Source: a virus. Taken from it: a DNA stretch of 42,456 nt. The DNA lies in UHGV virus genome UHGV-0171500; one strand, 5' to 3'. The notes beneath the pieces are model-generated. The model made no database searches. It was not told the origin of the DNA and saw nothing but the letters and a program-made list of their open reading frames with translations. Below are positions 1-37,343 of the stretch, piece after piece; positions within the stretch are counted from its first letter, which is position 1; each line of letters opens with the position of its first letter. The position numbers and the translations under genes were made by a program.

Positions 1-1377
1 AAACCGAAGTATGAAACGCAAGAAGAAATGATATTGCGCTTAGTTAGAGAACATAAAGAGAATATAGACAATATCACAATGGGTGAAAGATATTATAATC
101 ATCACCCAGATATATTAGACGCTCCTTTCAAAAGAGATGTGAACGGCGACTACGACGAAACTAAACCAGACTGGCGCATGTATACTAACTACCATCAAAA
201 CTTAGTAGACCAGAAAGTAGCATATGCAGTTGCTAATCCTGTGACATTTGGTGTAGATAATGACAAAGCATTAAAACAAATACAACATACACTTAATCAC
301 AAGTGGGATGACAAATTAGTGGATATATTAACTGCTGCAAGTAATAAAGGTATCGAATGGGTTCAACCTTATGTAGATGAAGAGGGAGAGTTTAAAACGT
401 TTCGTGTACCTGCAGAACAAGCTGTACCTATTTGGACTAATAAAGAAAGAGATGAACTGCAAGCGTTTATCCGTGTATATGAATTAGACGGAGCAGAACG
501 CGTTGAGTATTGGACTAAAGATGATGTGACATTCTATGAGTTGAAAGAAGGACAACTTATCCCTGATTTCTACCGTAGTGAAGATCATATACAACCTCAT
601 TATTATCAAGGTAATAAATTGATGAGTTGGGGACGTGTTCCTTTTATTCCGTTCAAGAACAACCCGCAAGAAGTATCTGACTTATTCATGTATAAGACAA
701 TCATAGATGCGTTAGATAAGCGATTATCAGATACACAAAACACTTTTGACGAATCAGTAGAGTTAATCTATATCTTAAAAGGTTATGAAGGCGAAGATAT
801 GAAAGATTTCATGCATAACCTTAAATACTATAAAGCGATTAGTGTTGCAGGGGAAAGTGGCTCCGGTGTAGATACTATCAAAGTAGAAGTGCCTATTGAC
901 TCTGTTAAGGAATACACGAAGATGTTACGTGATTACATTATAGAGTTTGGACAAGGTGTAGACTTCCAACAAGATAAGTTTGGTAATAGCCCAAGTGGTA
1001 TTGCACTTAAATTTATGTACAGTAACTTAGACTTAAAAGCTAATAAATTGAAGAACAAAACACTTACTGCATTACAAGAGCTATTGCAGTACATTATCGA
1101 CTTCTACAGATTAGATGTGAGAGTGCAAGACATCGAGATTACATTCAACTTCAATGTAATGGTTAATGAGTTAGAAAACTCTCAAATCGCTATGAATTCT
1201 ACAGGGTTATTATCTAAAGAAACTATTCTTGGTAATCATTCGTGGGTACAAGATCCTGTAGCTGAAATGGAAAGAATAGAGCAAGAAAACATAGAACTCA
1301 ATCAACAACTCCCTGACATTGAGGAGGGATTGAATGACGAACAACAAAGACAATCCGAAGATAACCAATCAGAATGA
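1..1377 (+). CDS. Portal protein (SPP1-family), N-terminally open at window start; reading frame continues in frame from 42397..42456 at the window end (circular permutation)
   Basis: Frame open from position 1 (KPKYETQEEMILRLV...); follows TerL as in phi11-like order; size ~470 aa when joined with the window end. Confidence 0.7.
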   Translation, partial: KPKYETQEEMILRLVREHKENIDNITMGERYYNHHPDILDAPFKRDVNGDYDETKPDWRMYTNYHQNLVDQKVAYAVANPVTFGVDNDKALKQIQHTLNHKWDDKLVDILTAASNKGIEWVQPYVDEEGEFKTFRVPAEQAVPIWTNKERDELQAFIRVYELDGAERVEYWTKDDVTFYELKEGQLIPDFYRSEDHIQPHYYQGNKLMSWGRVPFIPFKNNPQEVSDLFMYKTIIDALDKRLSDTQNTFDESVELIYILKGYEGEDMKDFMHNLKYYKAISVAGESGSGVDTIKVEVPIDSVKEYTKMLRDYIIEFGQGVDFQQDKFGNSPSGIALKFMYSNLDLKANKLKNKTLTALQELLQYIIDFYRLDVRVQDIEITFNFNVMVNELENSQIAMNSTGLLSKETILGNHSWVQDPVAEMERIEQENIELNQQLPDIEEGLNDEQQRQSEDNQSE

Positions 1378-2287
1378 CATAGATAACTACATCGACAAAC
1401 TGGTTAATCAAGCAGAGAAAGAAATCGAAATACTATTTGCTAAACGTTTGAAAGAAATCAAACAGATTATTGCGAATATGTACGAAAAGTACGATAGAGA
1501 TGAACCGAAAGTCACATGGACTGAATTTAATAAATACAACAGGCTCAACAAAGAACTTAATCGTATAGGACAGATGTTATCTCAAGACTACAGAGAAGTC
1601 GCTAAGGCTATCAAACAATCACAACAGAACGTCTATATCGAAAAGTACATGATGAGCCTATTTTTGTATGAAGTAGCAAGTCAAACGTCTATGAACTTTG
1701 ATATACCTACTTCGCAGACAATACAGACGGCAATTGAACAACCTATTGAGTTTATTAAGTTAGTACCTACACTGCAGAAACATCGTGACGATACATTAAA
1801 ACGTATTCGTACACACATAACACAAGGCATTATGAGTGGTGAGGGATATTCTAAGATAGCTAAAGCATTAAGAAATGATTTAGGTATGTCAAAAGCTCAA
1901 TCAGTGCGTGTAGCTAGAACAGAAACAGGGCGTGCATTGTCACAAGCTGGATTAGATAGCGCAATGGTAGCTAAAGATAATGGACTCGATATGAAGAAAC
2001 GTTGGTATGCTACTAAAGACACACGCACACGTGATACACATAGACACTTAGACGGCACTTCAGTCGATATTGAAGATAACTTTCATTCTAGTGGTTGTGT
2101 AGGTCCTGCACCTAAGTTATTTGTAGGTGTAGCTAGTGCAAAAGAGAACATCAATTGTCGTTGTAAGCTTCTTTATTACATAGACGAAGATGAATTACCT
2201 ACAACGATGAGAACTAAAGAAGATGGCGTAATACCTTTCACTAACTATAGAGAGTGGGAGAAGAATAAACGGAAAGGTAGTGTCTGA
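1334..2287 (+). CDS. Minor head / head morphogenesis protein (SPP1 gp7 family)
   Basis: 317 aa, overlaps portal stop; position portal->gp7-like->scaffold->MCP; C-terminal Cys-rich motif. Confidence 0.6.
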   Translation: MTNNKDNPKITNQNDIDNYIDKLVNQAEKEIEILFAKRLKEIKQIIANMYEKYDRDEPKVTWTEFNKYNRLNKELNRIGQMLSQDYREVAKAIKQSQQNVYIEKYMMSLFLYEVASQTSMNFDIPTSQTIQTAIEQPIEFIKLVPTLQKHRDDTLKRIRTHITQGIMSGEGYSKIAKALRNDLGMSKAQSVRVARTETGRALSQAGLDSAMVAKDNGLDMKKRWYATKDTRTRDTHRHLDGTSVDIEDNFHSSGCVGPAPKLFVGVASAKENINCRCKLLYYIDEDELPTTMRTKEDGVIPFTNYREWEKNKRKGSV

Positions 2288-2715: not shown

Positions 2716-3312
2716 ATGAAAAGAGAATTTTTACGTGGTTTAGGTGTCGAAGAAGATGCTATTCAAAAGATTATCGACGAACATCATGAAGGTTTGCAAT
2801 CATATAAAGAGAAGGCAGAGAAAGTTGATTCACTAAAAGAACAATTAGACACTGCTAACGAAGAAATTAAAAATCGTGATAATCAAATTGAAGAACTCAA
2901 AAATAATGTTGGTGATAACGATGAACTTAAACAAGAGTTAGAAAAATATAAAGAACAAAACGCTAACTACGATCAAAAACTCAAAGACGTTCAGTTAAAT
3001 AAAGCTATCGAAGTATCTTTAGCTAAAGAAAAAGCGATTAAACCTGAACAAGTAATCAAACTAATTGATAAAGATAATTTAGAAGTTGATGACAACGGAA
3101 ATGTCAAAGGATTAGATGATTACATGAGTGAGTTCAAAAAAGAGAATGAGCATTTGTTTGAACAATCTAAACCAAGCGGACGTACGCCGAATGACGGAAA
3201 AAGCGTTGCTGGCGGAATAACACAAGAACAGTTCAACAATATGAGCGTAGATGAAAGAACTGATCTATTTATGAATGATAGAAAAACATACGACGCTCTA
3301 ATAAACAATTAG
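2716..3312 (+). CDS. Scaffolding protein
   Basis: 198 aa, highly charged, coiled-coil (E/K-rich); immediately upstream of the major capsid gene. Confidence 0.65.
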   Translation: MKREFLRGLGVEEDAIQKIIDEHHEGLQSYKEKAEKVDSLKEQLDTANEEIKNRDNQIEELKNNVGDNDELKQELEKYKEQNANYDQKLKDVQLNKAIEVSLAKEKAIKPEQVIKLIDKDNLEVDDNGNVKGLDDYMSEFKKENEHLFEQSKPSGRTPNDGKSVAGGITQEQFNNMSVDERTDLFMNDRKTYDALINN

Positions 3313-4781: not shown

Positions 4782-5103
4782 TCCATTAAATGAGTTTCCT
4801 CATACAATCGAATTAGGCTCAAGAGAGGTTGTAGGAGAGTATCCACGTGAACAAGAGCGCTTTAAGAGCGAAAAAACAATACAAGGATTTATGGATACGC
4901 CTACTTCATCTGAACAACTCAAGTTTCATCAAATGAACCAATCATACGACAGAAACCTATATACGCCGTACAGCCTGCCAATAACTAACACAAACTTATT
5001 TAAATACAACGGTAAAACTTACGAAGTAGTAGGAGAACCTGTCGACCAAGGCGGACAACAAGAAATCAACTTAACGAGATTGAGAGAATGTCCTATTGGC
5101 TAA
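4774..5103 (+). CDS. Head-tail adaptor / head closure protein
   Basis: 109 aa, overlapping start, synteny. Confidence 0.45.
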   Translation: MFNPLNEFPHTIELGSREVVGEYPREQERFKSEKTIQGFMDTPTSSEQLKFHQMNQSYDRNLYTPYSLPITNTNLFKYNGKTYEVVGEPVDQGGQQEINLTRLRECPIG

Positions 5104-6512
5104 GGTTAAATACGGAAATTGGGATTTAGTTAAGGAACTTGAGGAGTTTGAAAAAGAAACGATTAGATGGGCTAAAAAAGGTATAGCCAAGACAACAACG
5201 ATTATTCACAATTCAATAGTTAGTAACATGCCTGTTGATACCGGTTATCTTAGAGAAAGTGTTTCTATGGACTTTAAGAAGGGCGGATTAACAGGCGTTA
5301 TTAATATTGGTAGTGAGTATGCAGTGTACGTTAACTACGGTACAGGGGTAGTGTGTATGCCCCACTTATCAGTAATGGTAAGTTAAAAATCGGGCAAAAT
5401 CGGTGAAAGTCTTATATGTAAAATATTGACTGGTATATACGATGAAGGTTTGGTATAATATCCATAAGGAGTGATGTTATGCTAACCAATTCTAAAGGCG
5501 AAGTTTTTGAAGGTAATTTTAGAGACTTGACAGGCAAAAAATTCAATATGTTAAAAGTCATAGAACCAGTAAGGATTCACAATCCACCTAAAGGAGATAG
5601 ATACCTGTATTGGTTAGTAGAGTGTGATTGTGGAAACACTGCAGTTAAATCTGCAAAATCTATAACAACAGGTTATTCCAAAAGTTGTGGATGCTTACAA
5701 AAGATAGCGACAAGCAAGGCTAAAAAAACTCATGGTGATACAGATTCTAGACTGTATTATATATGGGAAAATATGAAGAAACGTTGCTATAAACCAAATT
5801 CCGATAGATACAAAAATTATGGTGCTAGAGGAATAACTATCTGTGAAGAATGGAAAAATAGTTATAAAAATTTCTATGACTGGGCATATAATAATGGTTA
5901 CAATGAACGCTTAACTATTGAAAGAAAAGATATTAACGGTAACTACGAACCTTCAAATTGTACTTGGATAACAAGGAATGAACAAGCTAAAAACAGAACT
6001 AGCAATAAATGGGTATTCCTAGATGGTATTAAGTACTCGCCGCAAGAATTAGAAAAAATATACAAAATATCAATTAACACAATATATGCAAGGATTGCTC
6101 GTGGTGATAAAGGTTACGCTGTTGTTAGACCTTTAGGACAAAGACAATTCTGGAAAAGATAACACCGAGGTAACTTAATAGATTGCGAAAGGCTATTGAG
6201 CACTGTAGAGCGTAGGAAGTGAATAAATATAATCTTCCCAAGAGTGTCCGACAACCAATAATGGTTGTCTTTTTTATTGGTTGAAAATGTACGCCGAACT
6301 TACAGGTGACTGTAAGAAGTAAAGGATAAAAAGCCTTTACGATAACAAGATGATACGCAGTCGGTCCAGGTGGTAGTCGTGCAAAGAATATCCCGTGGCG
6401 TTACAAAGACGCAGACGGACATTGGCACACAACTAAAGGGCAACATGCACAACCTTTCTGGGAACCAGCAATTGATGAAGGTAGAGCGTTTTTCAATAAG
6501 TATTTTTCATAA
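5096..6512 (+). CDS. HK97 gp10-family tail-component gene split by a group I intron: exon 1 5096..5349, exon 2 6440..6512 (predicted 108 aa spliced product ...YVNYGTGV|QHAQPFWEPAIDEGRAFFNKYFS)
   Basis: N-terminal piece ends ...SEYAVYVNYGTG then enters stops; C-terminal AQPFWEPA motif typical of gp10 family lies 1.1 kb downstream with no start codon; 5 bp P1 pairing exon GGGGU with intron GCCCC (5359..5363); proposed 3' splice after G6439. Confidence 0.55.
5350..6439 (+). mobile_element. Group I intron (approx. boundaries) carrying a homing-endonuclease ORF
   Basis: Interrupts an essential structural gene; U at 5' exon end pairing with intron G; terminal G; GACUG...CAGUC candidate P7 (6307..6311 / 6359..6363); internal HEG ORF with own RBS and terminator. 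Confidence 0.55.
5479..6162 (+). CDS. Intron-encoded HNH-like (HNH_3/AP2-type) homing endonuclease with N-terminal Cys4 zinc finger
   Basis: CDCGNT...CGC zinc motif; C-terminal RLTIERKDINGNYEPSNCTWITRNEQAKN resembles the HNH_3 HIDGN..NL...EN core (first His appears replaced); own RBS AAGGAGTGA. Confidence 0.55.
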   Translation: MLTNSKGEVFEGNFRDLTGKKFNMLKVIEPVRIHNPPKGDRYLYWLVECDCGNTAVKSAKSITTGYSKSCGCLQKIATSKAKKTHGDTDSRLYYIWENMKKRCYKPNSDRYKNYGARGITICEEWKNSYKNFYDWAYNNGYNERLTIERKDINGNYEPSNCTWITRNEQAKNRTSNKWVFLDGIKYSPQELEKIYKISINTIYARIARGDKGYAVVRPLGQRQFWKR

Positions 6513-19463: not shown

Positions 19464-19490
19464 AAGCCGGCTTTTTAGTCGGCTTTTTAT
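19464..19490 (+). terminator. Rho-independent terminator
   Basis: AAGCCG-10 nt loop-CGGCTT followed by TTTTT. Confidence 0.6.
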
Positions 19491-19513: not shown

Positions 19514-21661
19514 ATGGGATTACCTAATCCTAAAAGAAGAAAACCTACTGCTTCGGAAGTTGCAGCATGGGCAAAAAGAATGATTGGCAGAAGAGTTGAT
19601 GTAGATGGTTATTATGGCGCCCAGTGTTGAATCTAGCACCTTTGATGAGTAATCATCATAGCAAACTCCTCTAATTCATGGGAACCCTAAACAAGTTATG
19701 TTGTAGGCAATCATGAGCGAAGCCTATAAATAGGAACGTGCAACGACTAGTCGAAAGACGTACACTCAAGCGAGTGGAAACGGGGAGCAACCTAATAGGT
19801 TGATGATATAGTCTGAACATTCATAGAAATATGAAGAAGGTGACAAGTGGCGATTGTCATCGTAACAAAATTGTGGGATTTACCAAACTACATTTTCAAT
19901 AGATATTGGCATTTCAAAACAACAGGAAATGCGATTGCTATGGCGTGGTATAGATATCCTAAAGGGTTCAAATTCTATAGGAATACTAGAAACTTTGTTC
20001 CGAAACCCGGAGATATGGCTGTATGGGGTACAGGTTCTTTTAATAATGGCACAGGACATACAGCTGTTGTAGTAGGTCCATCTAACAAGAGTTACTTCAC
20101 CAGTGTGGATCAAAATTGGCGAAATGCAAACGGTTATACCGGTTCTCCCGGTTCGTTAGAAAAACACACATACTATGGTATAAGTGGGTTCGTCAGACCT
20201 CCCTACCACGCAGAAACTAAGAAACCATCGAAACCAAGTAGTACACCGTCCAAACCCTCTAATGAAAACACTCCTAAAAACACAAAAGAACAAACGAAAC
20301 CTATAACTAAAGAGGTTACCAAAGTTTCCTATACATCGTTCGCATATGATTTAGACGATGATTTGGAATATATTTATCATTATATGGTTGAAGGGCAAAA
20401 GTTGATAGGGAAAGTAAAAGGTATATATATCAAAGAGAGTACACATATGCGTTCTGTTGAAGAATTGTATTTACAACGTAATAAATATGTGAATGAAGAT
20501 GAATACCCTCATGTATATATAGACCGTGAGCGTGTATGGACACCTAGACCTGATTCAGAAGAAGCACCAGAACATCCAGGTTGGCTTGTTATGGAAGTTT
20601 GCGGAGGACAAACGGATAGCAAACGCCAATTCATGCTCAATCAAATCAGAGCGTTAATCTACGGCGTTTGGTTGCTAAGTTGGAGTAAGGTGAAACTTTC
20701 TGAATCGTCAATCAAAGCAGATCCTAACATATGGCGTTCTATGAAAGATTTAATCAATTACGACTTAATCAAAAATGGTATTCCTGATGAAAGTAAATAT
20801 AAAGAAGTCGAGAAGAAAATTATCGGTTTATATTTGAAAAGAGATAAATTACTTACAGAAACAATTACTACAACAACTACAAAGACAAAGATAAAAATTA
20901 AACCTAAAACTTCGGTCGACAATCCTTCACAGAACGATAAGTCGACAGGTAAAACGACAAACAGAACTTCAAATAAACCTCGTGTAGTTGTAGAGAAAAG
21001 TAAATATACTTTCCAACAAGCGCTTAATGCACAAATGGCTCATGGCATGCCTCAAAAATCTTATAGTTGGGGTTGGGGTAATGCTTCTAGGTCACAAACA
21101 AGTAAGTATATGAATCCTAACACTATATGGAATAGTTCAACTCAACGCTATCAAATGCTAGATTTAGGAAAATATCAAGGTATATCAGTAAGTAAGTTGA
21201 ATAAGATACTTAAAGGTAAAGGCACTTTATCTGGACAAGGTAAAGCTTTTGCAGACGGTTGTAAGAAGTACAATGTAAATGAAATTTACTTAATTGCTCA
21301 CGCTTTCTTAGAAAGTGGATATGGCCGTAGTAACTTTGCTAGTGGGCGCTATGGAATTTATAACTACTTTGGTATTGCAGCATATGATAACAACCCTAAC
21401 GCTTCTATAGCGTATGCCAAACGCCAAGGCTGGACAAGTCCACGTAATGGTATTATAGGTGGTGCTAAGTTCGTTAGGAAACAATACTTTAACAAAGGTA
21501 AAAACACCTTATACAGAATGCGTTGGAATCCTAGTAATCCAGGTCGTATGCAATATGCTACTGCTATCGAATGGTGTAATTTCCAAGCAACAACAATAAA
21601 CAGTTTGTACAAAAAAGTAGGATTAAAAGGTATGTATTATATCAGAGATAAATATAGATAA
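19514..21661 (+). CDS. Virion-associated peptidoglycan hydrolase (CHAP + glucosaminidase/LYZ2), two exons: 19514..19627 and 19874..21661
   Basis: Exon 1 ends ...VDVDGYYGAQC; exon 2 begins WDLPNYIFNRYW..., together an uninterrupted LytA-type CHAP motif; C-terminal YNYFGIAAYDNNP... glucosaminidase domain. Confidence 0.75.
19628..19873 (+). mobile_element. ORF-less group I intron in the CHAP domain of the tail lysin gene
   Basis: In-frame TGA right after Cys codon; P1 exon GUGU pairing with intron GCAC (19636..19639); R-like element AACGACTAGTC (19742..19752) and S-like GATATAGTCT (19810..19819); terminal G at 19873. Confidence 0.7.
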
Positions 21662-21682: not shown

Positions 21683-21715
21683 CAGATCTAATCGATAGTG
21701 GTTAGGTCTTTTTAT
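21683..21715 (+). terminator. Putative terminator after tail lysin
   Basis: AGATCTAA..TTAGGTCT imperfect hairpin followed by TTTTTATTTT. Confidence 0.45.
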
Positions 21716-21739: not shown

Positions 21740-22027
21740 ATGAGAAATTTCTTAGGAATAAATTGGCATGTAAGATTTAATAATCCTATAGCTATTATTC
21801 AATTAATTGTAGGTGCATTTATGCCTATTCTTGTTTATTTAGGAATTGATTGGCATTCATTAACTACTTGGGGTGCTGTTGGAGAAGCTTTATTAAAATT
21901 TATTAGCAATCCAATTGCTGTAATAGGTGTGTTGGTAAGTCTATATATGTCGGCAGTAGACGGTACAAGTGCTGGTTTGTCCGATAGTTTAATGGCTCAA
22001 GAATATAAGAAACCTAATAAGGAATAG
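21740..22027 (+). CDS. Holin
   Basis: 95 aa, two predicted TM helices, charged C-terminus, directly upstream of endolysin. Confidence 0.75.
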   Translation: MRNFLGINWHVRFNNPIAIIQLIVGAFMPILVYLGIDWHSLTTWGAVGEALLKFISNPIAVIGVLVSLYMSAVDGTSAGLSDSLMAQEYKKPNKE

Positions 22028-22039
22028 GAGGCCTATAAA

Positions 22040-23764
22040 ATGGCAGAAAAATGGAATGGAGTACCAGTGCGTTACGATTTGTTGCCTATTGGAACACGTC
22101 GTAGTGGAGAAGCATTACACACTAAAAATGGAAAGCCTAGTTTTGCAGTTATTCATGATACTGGGAATCCAAATACTACTGCACAAGATAATGTGAATTA
22201 TTATAAAAATACTTATAATATCGCTTGGAGTATGGTAGCGAGCGCTCATATTTTTGTTGATGACAAAGAAGCAATTATATGTATTCCAGTTACAGAGGTA
22301 GCATGGCACGTTATGTTGAATACTACTATAGATAATCAGTGGTATAATGTTGACGCTGACTATGCGGCATTTGGTGTAGAAGCATGTTACTTCACAGATA
22401 AGAAACGCAGCTTAAAGTCGTTAGATAACGCAGCGCGTATCATGGCTTATCTTACTAAATTTTGGAAGATTAACTATAAAAATGAAATGCCAGGTCATCA
22501 AGACATACAGTATGACAAGCAAGATCCTGGAAACTTATTAGAAGCTTGTGGCTTAGGTCGTAATACGAGTATCTTTGATGGGTATGTAGCTAAATATATT
22601 GACGGCGTTAAAGTTCCCAAAGTTAGCAAGAAGAAAGCCGGAAACAAAGGTAAAAACAAAGAAAAACCTAAATCTAAGCCATCAACAAAAGATTACCAAA
22701 GTGCAATCAATTATATGTATAGCTTGAAAGGTAAGTTTGTTGACTTTGATAATCGTTGGGCATATCAATGTATGGACTTAGCAGTTGATTACGTATATCA
22801 CATAACTAATGGTAAAGTTAGAATGTGGGGTAATGCGAAAGATAGTATCCTCAATATATTCCCTAAAGGTTGGAAGATTGTCAAAAATACACCGGATTAT
22901 GTACCACCAGTTGGAGCAATTGGTGTATGTACGTATGGTATATACCAAAGATACGGTCACATCTATTTAGTTTGGGATAATAGTGGAGGAACTAACACAC
23001 AAACTGTATTAGAACAAAACTTTGATGGTAACGCAGATACACCTGCAAAACTACGTGTTGATAATTTTTATGGAACAACGCATTACATTGTGCCATCATT
23101 TGTTGATGAAGATTATGATGTAAACAAAATCAAAACAGTTACAACTCGCAAGGCTACAAATAAATATAATGGTAAACGAGTACCTAAAAACTTAGTATGG
23201 AGTAAAACACCTCATTATATTGCAAAAGCAGACAGTGCAGGTGTCACTATCTGCAAAGATGTTAAAAACGGATATATGAAGAAAACTAATCTAGTATACA
23301 AAGCAGGTTATAGTCCGTTTTACGTATATGAAGTACGTGAAGGTTGGGCGCGTGTTTATTCTGAAAGTAGTAATTACTGGGTATGGCATGAGCGTTTGAT
23401 CATCACTAAAGAATATAAACACAATGAAACAAGAGATGGCAAAAAAGCAAGTAAGCAAACAAAAGAAATGAAAAAAATAGCAAAGAAATCTAAAAATAAG
23501 CTTTCTATAGGTCAAATACCACCTAAAAAATTAGGTTGGCAACGCAAAAAATACTTTGCAGCACGCGCAGATAGCTTTGGCGCAACTATACTTAATAGGC
23601 ATGGCGGTAAAGGTAATTATTCATGGAATATGACTAATACAACATATGGTAAAGGTCAATTATTCTATGTTTACGAGATTATCGACGGTTGGTGTCGTGT
23701 ACACGGTCCTAGTGATAACTACTGGGTATGGCACGAAAGACTTAGAATTACAAAAGTATATTAA
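22040..23764 (+). CDS. Endolysin: N-terminal amidase_2 (PGRP), central CHAP, two C-terminal SH3b-like repeats
   Basis: AWHVM / GHQD zinc-ligand motifs in N-domain; YQCMD...GHIYLVWD CHAP Cys/His; duplicated FYVYE..GW.RV....NYWVWHERL repeat. Confidence 0.8.
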   Translation: MAEKWNGVPVRYDLLPIGTRRSGEALHTKNGKPSFAVIHDTGNPNTTAQDNVNYYKNTYNIAWSMVASAHIFVDDKEAIICIPVTEVAWHVMLNTTIDNQWYNVDADYAAFGVEACYFTDKKRSLKSLDNAARIMAYLTKFWKINYKNEMPGHQDIQYDKQDPGNLLEACGLGRNTSIFDGYVAKYIDGVKVPKVSKKKAGNKGKNKEKPKSKPSTKDYQSAINYMYSLKGKFVDFDNRWAYQCMDLAVDYVYHITNGKVRMWGNAKDSILNIFPKGWKIVKNTPDYVPPVGAIGVCTYGIYQRYGHIYLVWDNSGGTNTQTVLEQNFDGNADTPAKLRVDNFYGTTHYIVPSFVDEDYDVNKIKTVTTRKATNKYNGKRVPKNLVWSKTPHYIAKADSAGVTICKDVKNGYMKKTNLVYKAGYSPFYVYEVREGWARVYSESSNYWVWHERLIITKEYKHNETRDGKKASKQTKEMKKIAKKSKNKLSIGQIPPKKLGWQRKKYFAARADSFGATILNRHGGKGNYSWNMTNTTYGKGQLFYVYEIIDGWCRVHGPSDNYWVWHERLRITKVY

Positions 23765-36728: not shown

Positions 36729-37343
36729 ATGAGACATGTATGGACTGATGAGCATGAAAAATATATTCGAAATAACATCAAAGGTAAAACTAAGAAAGAA
36801 ATGACAGAAATGTTTAATAAGGAGTTTGGCACTGATGTTACTACAGATAAAATGAAAGGTTTTTGTTCGAGAAAAAGGATAAGAAGTGGGGTTGATTGTA
36901 AGTTTAAAAAAGGTGTGCCTTCTTGGAACAAAGGTAAAAGTTTTCCGTCCAGAGGTAGAAGCGCTGAAACTCAATTTAAGAAAGGACAAATGCCCGATAA
37001 CACATTTCCTTTAGGAACGATAAAAACCACTACTGATGGTTATAAGTTTATAAAAATCAAAAAACGAGGTTCTAAAAACGAATGCTGGAAACAATACACA
37101 CATTATTTATGGGAACAAAAGCACGGACCTGTGCCCAAAGGATATTGTTTAATACATTTGAATCAAAACAGGTCAGACTGTAGCGAAGAAAATATAGCAT
37201 TGGTAAGTCGTAAAGAATTAGTACGTATTAACAAACTTAATTTAACTTCAACTGATCGAAACTTAACTAAAGCAGGAATCAACTTTGTTAAATTATTAAA
37301 CAAACAAAAAGAAGTTAAGGACAAAATAAATGCTACTAAGTGA
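36729..37343 (+). CDS. Free-standing HNH_3-family homing endonuclease
   Basis: HYLWEQKHGPVPKGYCLIHLNQNRSDCSEENIALVSRKE canonical HNH_3 core. Confidence 0.7.
   Translation: MRHVWTDEHEKYIRNNIKGKTKKEMTEMFNKEFGTDVTTDKMKGFCSRKRIRSGVDCKFKKGVPSWNKGKSFPSRGRSAETQFKKGQMPDNTFPLGTIKTTTDGYKFIKIKKRGSKNECWKQYTHYLWEQKHGPVPKGYCLIHLNQNRSDCSEENIALVSRKELVRINKLNLTSTDRNLTKAGINFVKLLNKQKEVKDKINATK

Follow-up and report, generated by a model that had tools for sequence, protein, structure and literature searches.

The tail-associated cell-wall hydrolase gene of the virus genome UHGV-0171500 is interrupted by a 246-nucleotide group I intron without an open reading frame (ORF), located at 19628..19873 on the plus strand. 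All positions refer to the whole stretch of 42,456 nucleotides, called the window. The insert is a real group I intron; its fold, its borders, the restoration of the reading frame and its polymorphic distribution were shown in this analysis. By megablast against 50,697 phage records the window was recognized as a Staphylococcus epidermidis siphovirus of the PH15/CNPH82/phiIPLA5 group, genus Rockefellervirus. The intron is already known, as it is a further copy of the described and experimentally supported intron of phage PH15. The interrupted gene is composed as follows:

19514..19627, plus strand: exon 1, 38 codons ending with TGT for Cys38 (ORF list, junction of phiIPLA7, alignment with the CHAP domain of LysK, CHAPK)
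19628..19873, plus strand: ORF-less group I intron of IA type (Rfam, exact borders, fold with z = -3.1, covariation)
19873..19873, plus strand: omega-G at the 3' splice site 19873|19874 (junction compared with an intron-less allele; conserved in homologues at the same site)
19874..21661, plus strand: exon 2, 595 codons and stop, coding for the rest of CHAP including His100, the linker and the C-terminal glucosaminidase

The whole window was scanned with Rfam. The model Intron_gpI (RF00028) matched 19617..19836 on the plus strand with 93.8 bits (E 4.9e-23), compared to a gathering score of 50 bits, and model positions 1-253 of 253 were covered. This was the sole Rfam match in the 42 kb. Chance is therefore excluded. 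A group I intron had been proposed in an earlier note on this DNA, which named an Infernal search with this model as a check, and the identity is hereby established. The note had also described the insert as free of ORFs; indeed, the ORF list of the window holds none of at least 30 amino acids on the plus strand within 19628..19873.

The borders were determined by comparison with the intron-less phage phiIPLA7, which is contiguous at the junction (...GGCGCCCAGTGT|TGGGATTTACC..., gap 0; locally CAGTGT|TGGGAT). Between the same flanking bases the window, phiIPLA5 and PH15 each hold exactly 246 nucleotides. As phiIPLA7 has no insert between these bases, the exon junction is exactly 19627|19874. 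T19628 and T19874 are identical, which leaves an ambiguity of one nucleotide. The junction 19627|19874 was chosen because only this one places U19627 before the intron and G19873 at its end. This omega-G stands directly 5' of exon 2, and the end ...AUUG| is kept in the homologues at the same site. The in-frame TGA stop of the exon-1 ORF forms intron positions 1-3. The insert of 246 nucleotides which follows a U and ends in G, as claimed in the earlier note, is confirmed. Position 19836, also a G and the end of the Rfam model, was considered as 3' splice site and rejected. With 19627 joined to 19837 the reading frame would be lost (37 nucleotides), and phiIPLA7 fixes 19873|19874. The 37 nucleotides beyond the model are the P9.1 hairpin and the tail GUAACAAAAUUG, which ends in the omega-G.

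Both ORFs named in the earlier note exist. ORF 19514..19630 codes for 38 amino acids, ending with VDVDGYYGAQC before the TGA; ORF 19847..21661 codes for 604 amino acids and begins with MAIVIVTKLWDLPNYIFNRYW. Joining of the exons yields an ORF of 1902 nucleotides and 633 amino acids (38 + 595), colinear with the unbroken 633-amino-acid ORF of phiIPLA7. The spliced length of about 642 amino acids given before has to be corrected, as the first nine codons of ORF 19847 are intron sequence. In the spliced protein two Pfam domains were detected above their cut-offs, CHAP (PF05257) at residues 31-119 with 36.5 bits (cut-off 26) and a glucosaminidase domain at residues 495-616 with 45.6 bits. The architecture of CHAP and glucosaminidase was thus correctly proposed.

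The N-terminal 155 residues match solved CHAP structures, namely 6ist (3e-26) and the CHAP domains of LysGH15/LysK (4olk, 4csh; 6e-17). In the alignment with 4csh, DVDGYYGAQCWDL stands over DADGYYHAQCQDL, and Cys38 corresponds to Cys54 of CHAPK. His100, located in the 'GH' motif, aligns to CHAPK His117. For CHAPK, Cys54 is described as the nucleophile in the triad Cys54-His117-Glu134; the variant C54A is inactive, and the roles of Cys54 and His117 were demonstrated by mutagenesis (PMC4126393). Hence, the intron is located directly after the codon of the nucleophile, between Cys38 (TGT) and Trp39 (TGG). This position between the catalytic Cys and Trp codons had been read from the two ORFs before and is confirmed by both the intron-less allele and the Cys54 alignment. 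Exon 1 also codes for most of the Ca2+-loop residues (D29, D31 and Y33). For the ORF with exon 2 only, Pfam reported a partial CHAP match (profile positions 16-81) without Cys. Therefore, an active peptidase requires ligation of the exons, as the earlier note had expected. The tryptic peptide VDVDGYYGAQCWDLPNYIFNR spans the exon junction of the spliced hydrolase.

The minimum free energy (MFE) fold was computed on 19618-19885. With z = -3.1, it yields P1, P2, P3, P4, P5/5a, P6a, P7.1, P7.2, P8, P9 and P9.1 by itself. P7 (19743 and 19745-49 with 19809-14) makes the usual pseudoknot with P3. The helices were further examined for covariation with 15 Rfam-confirmed introns of staphylococcal siphoviruses and Twort-like myoviruses; invariance was counted on 13 distinct homologues. 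Standard pairs occupied 94.6% of the cells of the helix model (74 pairs in 14 helices), compared to 33-43% with the 3' partners slid by 1-3 columns. Compensatory change on both sides was found for 42 of the 74 pairs, and 0 of 500 shuffles attained any of the observed measures. The U.G at the splice site is invariant in 13 of 13 homologues, as are all six pairs of P7. The elements of the ribozyme are:

19624-19629 with 19634-19639, plus strand: P1, 5' strand of exon GUGU and intron UG with the guide UAGCAC (Rfam alignment, MFE, covariation)
19640..19661, plus strand: P2 with GUAA tetraloop, 19643-48/19653-58 and outer 19640-41/19660-61 (100% paired, 4 of 6 pairs compensatory)
19666..19671, plus strand: P3 5' strand CUCCUC, partner 19782-19787 (Rfam, MFE; 100% paired, 5 of 6 pairs compensatory)
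19676..19739, plus strand: P4-P5-P5a-P6-P6a domain with P4 19676-81/19711-16, P5/5a 19686-93/19699-707, P6 19717-18/19738-39 and P6a 19723-26/19731-34 (Rfam alignment, MFE, covariation)
19743..19749, plus strand: P7 5' strand ('R' element), aligned to the Rfam consensus GACUA (6 pairs invariant in the 13 homologues)
19750..19776, plus strand: P7.1 (19750-52/57-59, GAAA loop; 3 of 3 pairs compensatory) and P7.2 (19763-67/72-76; 4 of 5) (MFE, covariation)
19782..19787, plus strand: P3 3' strand GGGGAG (MFE, covariation)
19788..19802, plus strand: P8 hairpin, 19788-93/19797-802 (4 of 6 pairs compensatory)
19803..19814, plus strand: J8/7 and P7 3' strand ('S' element AUGAUAUAGUCU), aligned by Rfam to AAGAUAUAGUCu and invariant in the homologues
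19820..19861, plus strand: P9 (19820-25/30-35, GAAA loop) and P9.1 (19839-46/54-61) (MFE, covariation)

P1 joins exon GUGU (19624-27) to intron GCAC (19636-39); its wobble pair at the splice site is U19627.G19636, and 4 of 6 pairs show compensatory change. The 5' strand of P7 pairs with 19809-19814 through A19743 and G19745-A19749, leaving C19744 as a bulge. P7 at 19743..19749 is presumably the guanosine-binding helix. In the Rfam alignment, the 'R' element AACGACUAGUC (19742-52) falls on J6/7-P7 of the model and the 'S' element GAUAUAGUCU (19805-14) on J8/7-P7'. Thus, P1 as drawn in the earlier note reappeared in the Rfam alignment and in the MFE fold, its R and S elements were located where the model has them, and a group I core was recovered by folding and backed by covariation. 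Its description of the intron is right for core and borders; the 3' extension with P9.1 was left undescribed. The peripheral hairpins P7.1 and P7.2 are typical of subgroup IA, to which the intron is therefore assigned. The finer label IA2-like, after the Michel-Westhof classification, is tentative.

The intron is optional among close relatives. Among the S. epidermidis phage records, seven phages have the same intron (98-100% identical), about 11 are without it and two have a different intron nearby. Identity is 100% in phiIPLA5, E72, E72m5, BE01 and BE21 and 98.4% in PH15 and PG-2021_89. The intron-less sisters, e.g. CNPH82, phiIPLA7, 459, 27, 48, CNPx, 456 and IME1348_01, match over 2016 and not over 2262 nucleotides. 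Versions with about 87-90% identity were detected at this site of the hydrolase gene in StB12, IME1323_01 and IME1318_01 (phages of S. hominis, S. caprae and S. haemolyticus) and also in the S. epidermidis element HOB 14.1.R1. The copies of about 89% in StB12, IME1323_01 and IME1318_01, annotated as 'endolysin' or 'autolysin', were considered as residing in another gene, but they lie in the same tail hydrolase annotated in fragments. The distribution is as expected for an optional intron that moves horizontally, and the intron family is common to other staphylococcal siphoviruses and myoviruses. Presence/absence polymorphism is the sole basis for the mobility.

The closest described system is the ph24 intron of PH15 (Daniel, Bonnen & Fischetti 2007, J Bacteriol 189:2086), with the same gene, the same TGT|TGG site and the same length of 246 nucleotides. 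It is 98.4% identical over 244 nucleotides, reaches 96.1 bits with Rfam and differs by few base substitutions; e.g. it starts with UAA, the window intron with UGA. In GenBank DQ834250 (2006/2007) the ph24 'hydrolase' was deposited as a two-piece joined coding sequence (CDS). Only two joined CDSs are present in this record, the large terminase (terL) and ph24. In vivo splicing is reported for both PH15 introns in PMC7235722, citing Daniel et al. 2007. The non-coding intron in hyd of E72 was predicted in print in 2021 (PMC8125051). The copies of E72, phiIPLA5, E72m5, BE01 and BE21 occupy the same site as the window intron. Fragments or truncated CDSs in the records of phiIPLA5, BE01 and BE21 are a difference of annotation, not of biology.

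More distant relatives are found in Twort-like myoviruses (Kayvirus 812/K group, Silviavirus and Baoshanvirus) with about 75-77% identity over 97% of the window intron. Their architecture is likewise P1-P9.1 with P7.1/P7.2, and they served in the covariation test. In contrast to the window intron, they interrupt other genes (tail tube/tmpA, capsid and others); their P1 guides are different, and they are sometimes in tandem or equipped with endonuclease ORFs. For the S. aureus phage DW2, a putative ORF-less intron of 349 bp in the tail hydrolase was described (Keary et al. 2014, PMC4124061). As in the window, a CHAP-containing tail hydrolase is broken by an ORF-less putative group I intron. However, the DW2 insert has another length and another site, with about 35 N-terminal residues upstream and the catalytic Cys downstream of it, and its splicing is putative.

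We are all but sure that standard two-step guanosine-initiated group I splicing joins Cys38 to Trp39. The ribozyme in the pre-mRNA would fold into P1-P9.1, and an external guanosine bound in P7 would attack the phosphate after U19627, which would be held in P1 by the guide GCAC/UAG via the U.G wobble. The freed 3'-OH of exon 1 would then attack after G19873, and a short P10 (UCUA with UGGG) would probably provide the alignment. By ligation TGT (Cys38) would be joined to TGG (Trp39), and only the ligated mRNA would code for a CHAP domain with its nucleophile. A possible P10 was found by eye between UCUA (19632-35) and UGGG of exon 2 (19874-77). Our inferences are the reaction chemistry, P10 and how the intron spreads; splicing of the orthologue is taken from the literature. 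The ORF-less intron may have spread by recombination in the exon flanks or by an endonuclease acting in trans.

Several points weigh against this reading. The candidate P10 has just 4 bp, two of them G.U pairs. The evidence for splicing in PH15 is second-hand, backed by the joined CDS in GenBank, and for the window intron itself splicing is concluded from the sequence and from this orthologue. No homing endonuclease is encoded in 19628..19873 (no plus-strand ORF of at least 30 amino acids) that would account for the mobility. Furthermore, a Shine-Dalgarno (SD)-like AAGGUG is located 4 nucleotides upstream of GTG 19847 and could allow independent translation of a protein without the Cys.

An opposing view is that the gene exists in pieces. 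The insert would be a non-splicing relic and the 38-amino-acid peptide irrelevant; the 604-amino-acid protein from GTG 19847 (N-terminus MAIVIVTK), with a dead CHAP, would work structurally and as glucosaminidase. Besides the SD-like sequence, the truncated CDS annotated in several GenBank records (phiIPLA5, BE21, BE01) fits this view, as does a statement in the DW2 paper (PMC4124061) that the tail hydrolase of phi11 is mainly structural. We consider it hardly credible. The ribozyme has an intact core whose helices are kept by compensatory changes across phages, the exons are in frame and match the intron-less alleles, and the product would be without Cys38. In the MFE fold both the SD-like AAGGUG and GTG 19847 are buried in the P9.1 hairpin, and for the PH15 orthologue splicing in vivo is reported (PMC7235722). 

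Splicing might also depend on a protein of phage or host (maturase, chaperone) or on ongoing translation. The output of hydrolase would then be conditional, a switch for late-gene timing. In td of phage T4 translation helps folding, and the arrangement of the exon-1 stop in the window resembles td: with the stop at intron positions 1-3, ribosomes reach P1. An alternative pairing of exon 1 with exon 2, CCCA (19620-23) with UGGG (19874-77), occurs in the MFE fold and likewise speaks for assistance. Nevertheless, no core element is missing, as P1-P9 are all present with a high Rfam score, the family of its close relatives in Twort-like phages is known for self-splicing, and no maturase-like ORF accompanies the intron. 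Judged from the sequence, dependence on such help is quite unlikely, and standard group I splicing remains the preferred explanation.

A further group I intron was identified in the same genome:

5350..6352 (1003 nucleotides): second group I intron, splitting the HK97-gp10-type tail-completion gene; exon 1 at 5096..5349, exon 2 at 6353..6512, intron ORF at 5479..6162

Excision of 5350..6352 restores a protein identical to ph11 of PH15 except for I to V at the junction. Exon 1 terminates in GGGGU, which pairs with GCCCC, and the last base of the insert is a G. Its ORF (227 amino acids, phrog_374 HNH) lies in the P5 loop. With Rfam 15 no match was obtained, even at E <= 1, for this intron or for nine relatives including compact ORF-less ones. 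A model with the P3/P7 pseudoknot, P4, P6, P7.1, P8, P9 and P9.1 was built by hand and counted on an alignment of 11 sequences (A2) from phages of Staphylococcus, Clostridioides, Clostridium, Bacillus, Lactobacillus and Arcanobacterium, one human-gut phage contig and two crAss-like phages. For P3-P9.1, pairing was 97.1%, compared to 30-41% with slid partners; 38 of 53 pairs are compensatory and all seven pairs of P3 covary. The terminase intron of Lactobacillus phage JCL1032, deposited with a joined CDS, belongs to this family. The JCL1032 introns were proven to be self-splicing (Riipinen & Alatossava 2004, as cited in PMC6669764), and the intron RNA of phage ROSA was linked earlier to group I introns of B. 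cereus-group prophages, classes IA1/IA2 (PMC2504315). The view that the second insert is not a group I intron, suggested by the missing Rfam match, was overturned by the manual model, its covariation and this literature on JCL1032 and ROSA. The evidence strongly supports that 5350..6352 is a group I intron of known kind, missed by the single model of Rfam.

The loop UGAAUAAAUAUAAU of a P7.1-like hairpin (window 6256..6269, A2 columns 110-134) comprises 14 nucleotides with little or no variation between Staphylococcus phages and crAss-like phages. The stem around it covaries freely (5 of 5 pairs). This conservation points to a tertiary contact or an active-site function. A related intron is located 21 nucleotides upstream in the same gp10-type gene of ROSA (L014), BE28 (L015) and IME1365_01 (L016), at about 830..1800 of these pieces. 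Insertion is after ...EYAI in these three phages and after ...YGTGV in the window (5349|5350), and (A/G)T|ATACG is the local sequence common to both. The guide is altered to fit each exon, GCGAU with GUCGC in ROSA, BE28 and IME1365_01 and GCCCC in the window. The two sites with matched guides look like an apparent site switch.

Other introns were also detected in the hydrolase gene. BE28 (piece L004, 723..1705) and PG-2021_93 have an intron of about 983 nucleotides, positioned 6 nucleotides upstream of the window site (GCU|CAA, Ala36|Gln37). The exon ends in U and the insert in G, and the intron carries an ORF for a phrog_374 endonuclease of HNH/AP2 type. It gave no Rfam match at the gathering threshold; a permissive search yielded 39 bits (E 3e-8, sub-threshold) and a separate 3' piece. 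Gene and catalytic motif are the same as in the window, but site, length and the HNH ORF differ. The possibility that the BE28 insertion is a variant of the 246-nucleotide intron was ruled out, as it is a distinct ORF-bearing intron with unrelated ribozyme sequence. The flanking exon of BE28 and PG-2021_93 shows synonymous and Y-to-H changes. In StB12 the hydrolase gene has two Rfam-confirmed introns (piece L005, 2489..2705 and 2960..3227, with 100 and 95 bits), and the gene is annotated as three separate 'peptidoglycan hydrolase' CDSs.

The window also holds a free-standing HNH_3 endonuclease gene (36729..37343, 204 amino acids) in the region of replication and late regulation. Both endonucleases of the genome, this one and the intron-borne one at 5479..6162, could act in trans on ORF-less introns. 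A joint reading of these data can be put forward, which we regard as unlikely. The Cys motif of CHAP would be a contested homing hot-spot, with two unrelated introns at mutually exclusive sites 6 nucleotides apart, the ORF-less one persisting because it is mobilised in trans by an HNH endonuclease of phrog_374 type encoded elsewhere (e.g. 5479..6162). The second intron would represent a widespread compact subclass of phages of Firmicutes and crAss-like phages, with the invariant 14-nucleotide P7.1 loop UGAAUAAAUAUAAU and without a usable covariance model in Rfam 15.

Around the hydrolase gene, terminator-like hairpins with T-runs are found on both sides (19464..19485 and 21684..21709); their count is not above the shuffled expectation. 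Given these hairpins, the gene may be a separate transcription unit or under read-through control. The lysis cassette follows directly, with a holin (Phage_holin_1) at 21740..22027 and an endolysin of 574 amino acids at 22040..23764, which has the architecture Amidase_2 - CHAP - 2x SH3b_T. Homology to PH15 and E72 ends at 21661. The lysis module is common to phiIPLA5 and differs from that of PH15/E72.

Phage group I introns are typically found at those codons of a gene which are most conserved and essential for catalysis. The window intron is one more example of introns at catalytic codons and opens no new question. The main value of the finding is practical, as many deposited annotations of the hydrolase gene are truncated or fragmented. 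In public records the CDS starts at the GTG inside the intron (window 19847), e.g. in phiIPLA5 (piece L001, 2720..4543), or the gene is split. Truncated (604-607 amino acids) or fragmented hydrolases were found for phiIPLA5, BE01, BE21, StB12, IME1318_01 and IME1323_01. Exon 1 is omitted from these annotations and, therefore, the catalytic cysteine is absent from the annotated protein. If such annotated 'virion-associated peptidoglycan hydrolases' were cloned as antibacterials without joining of the exons, their CHAP domain would be dead.

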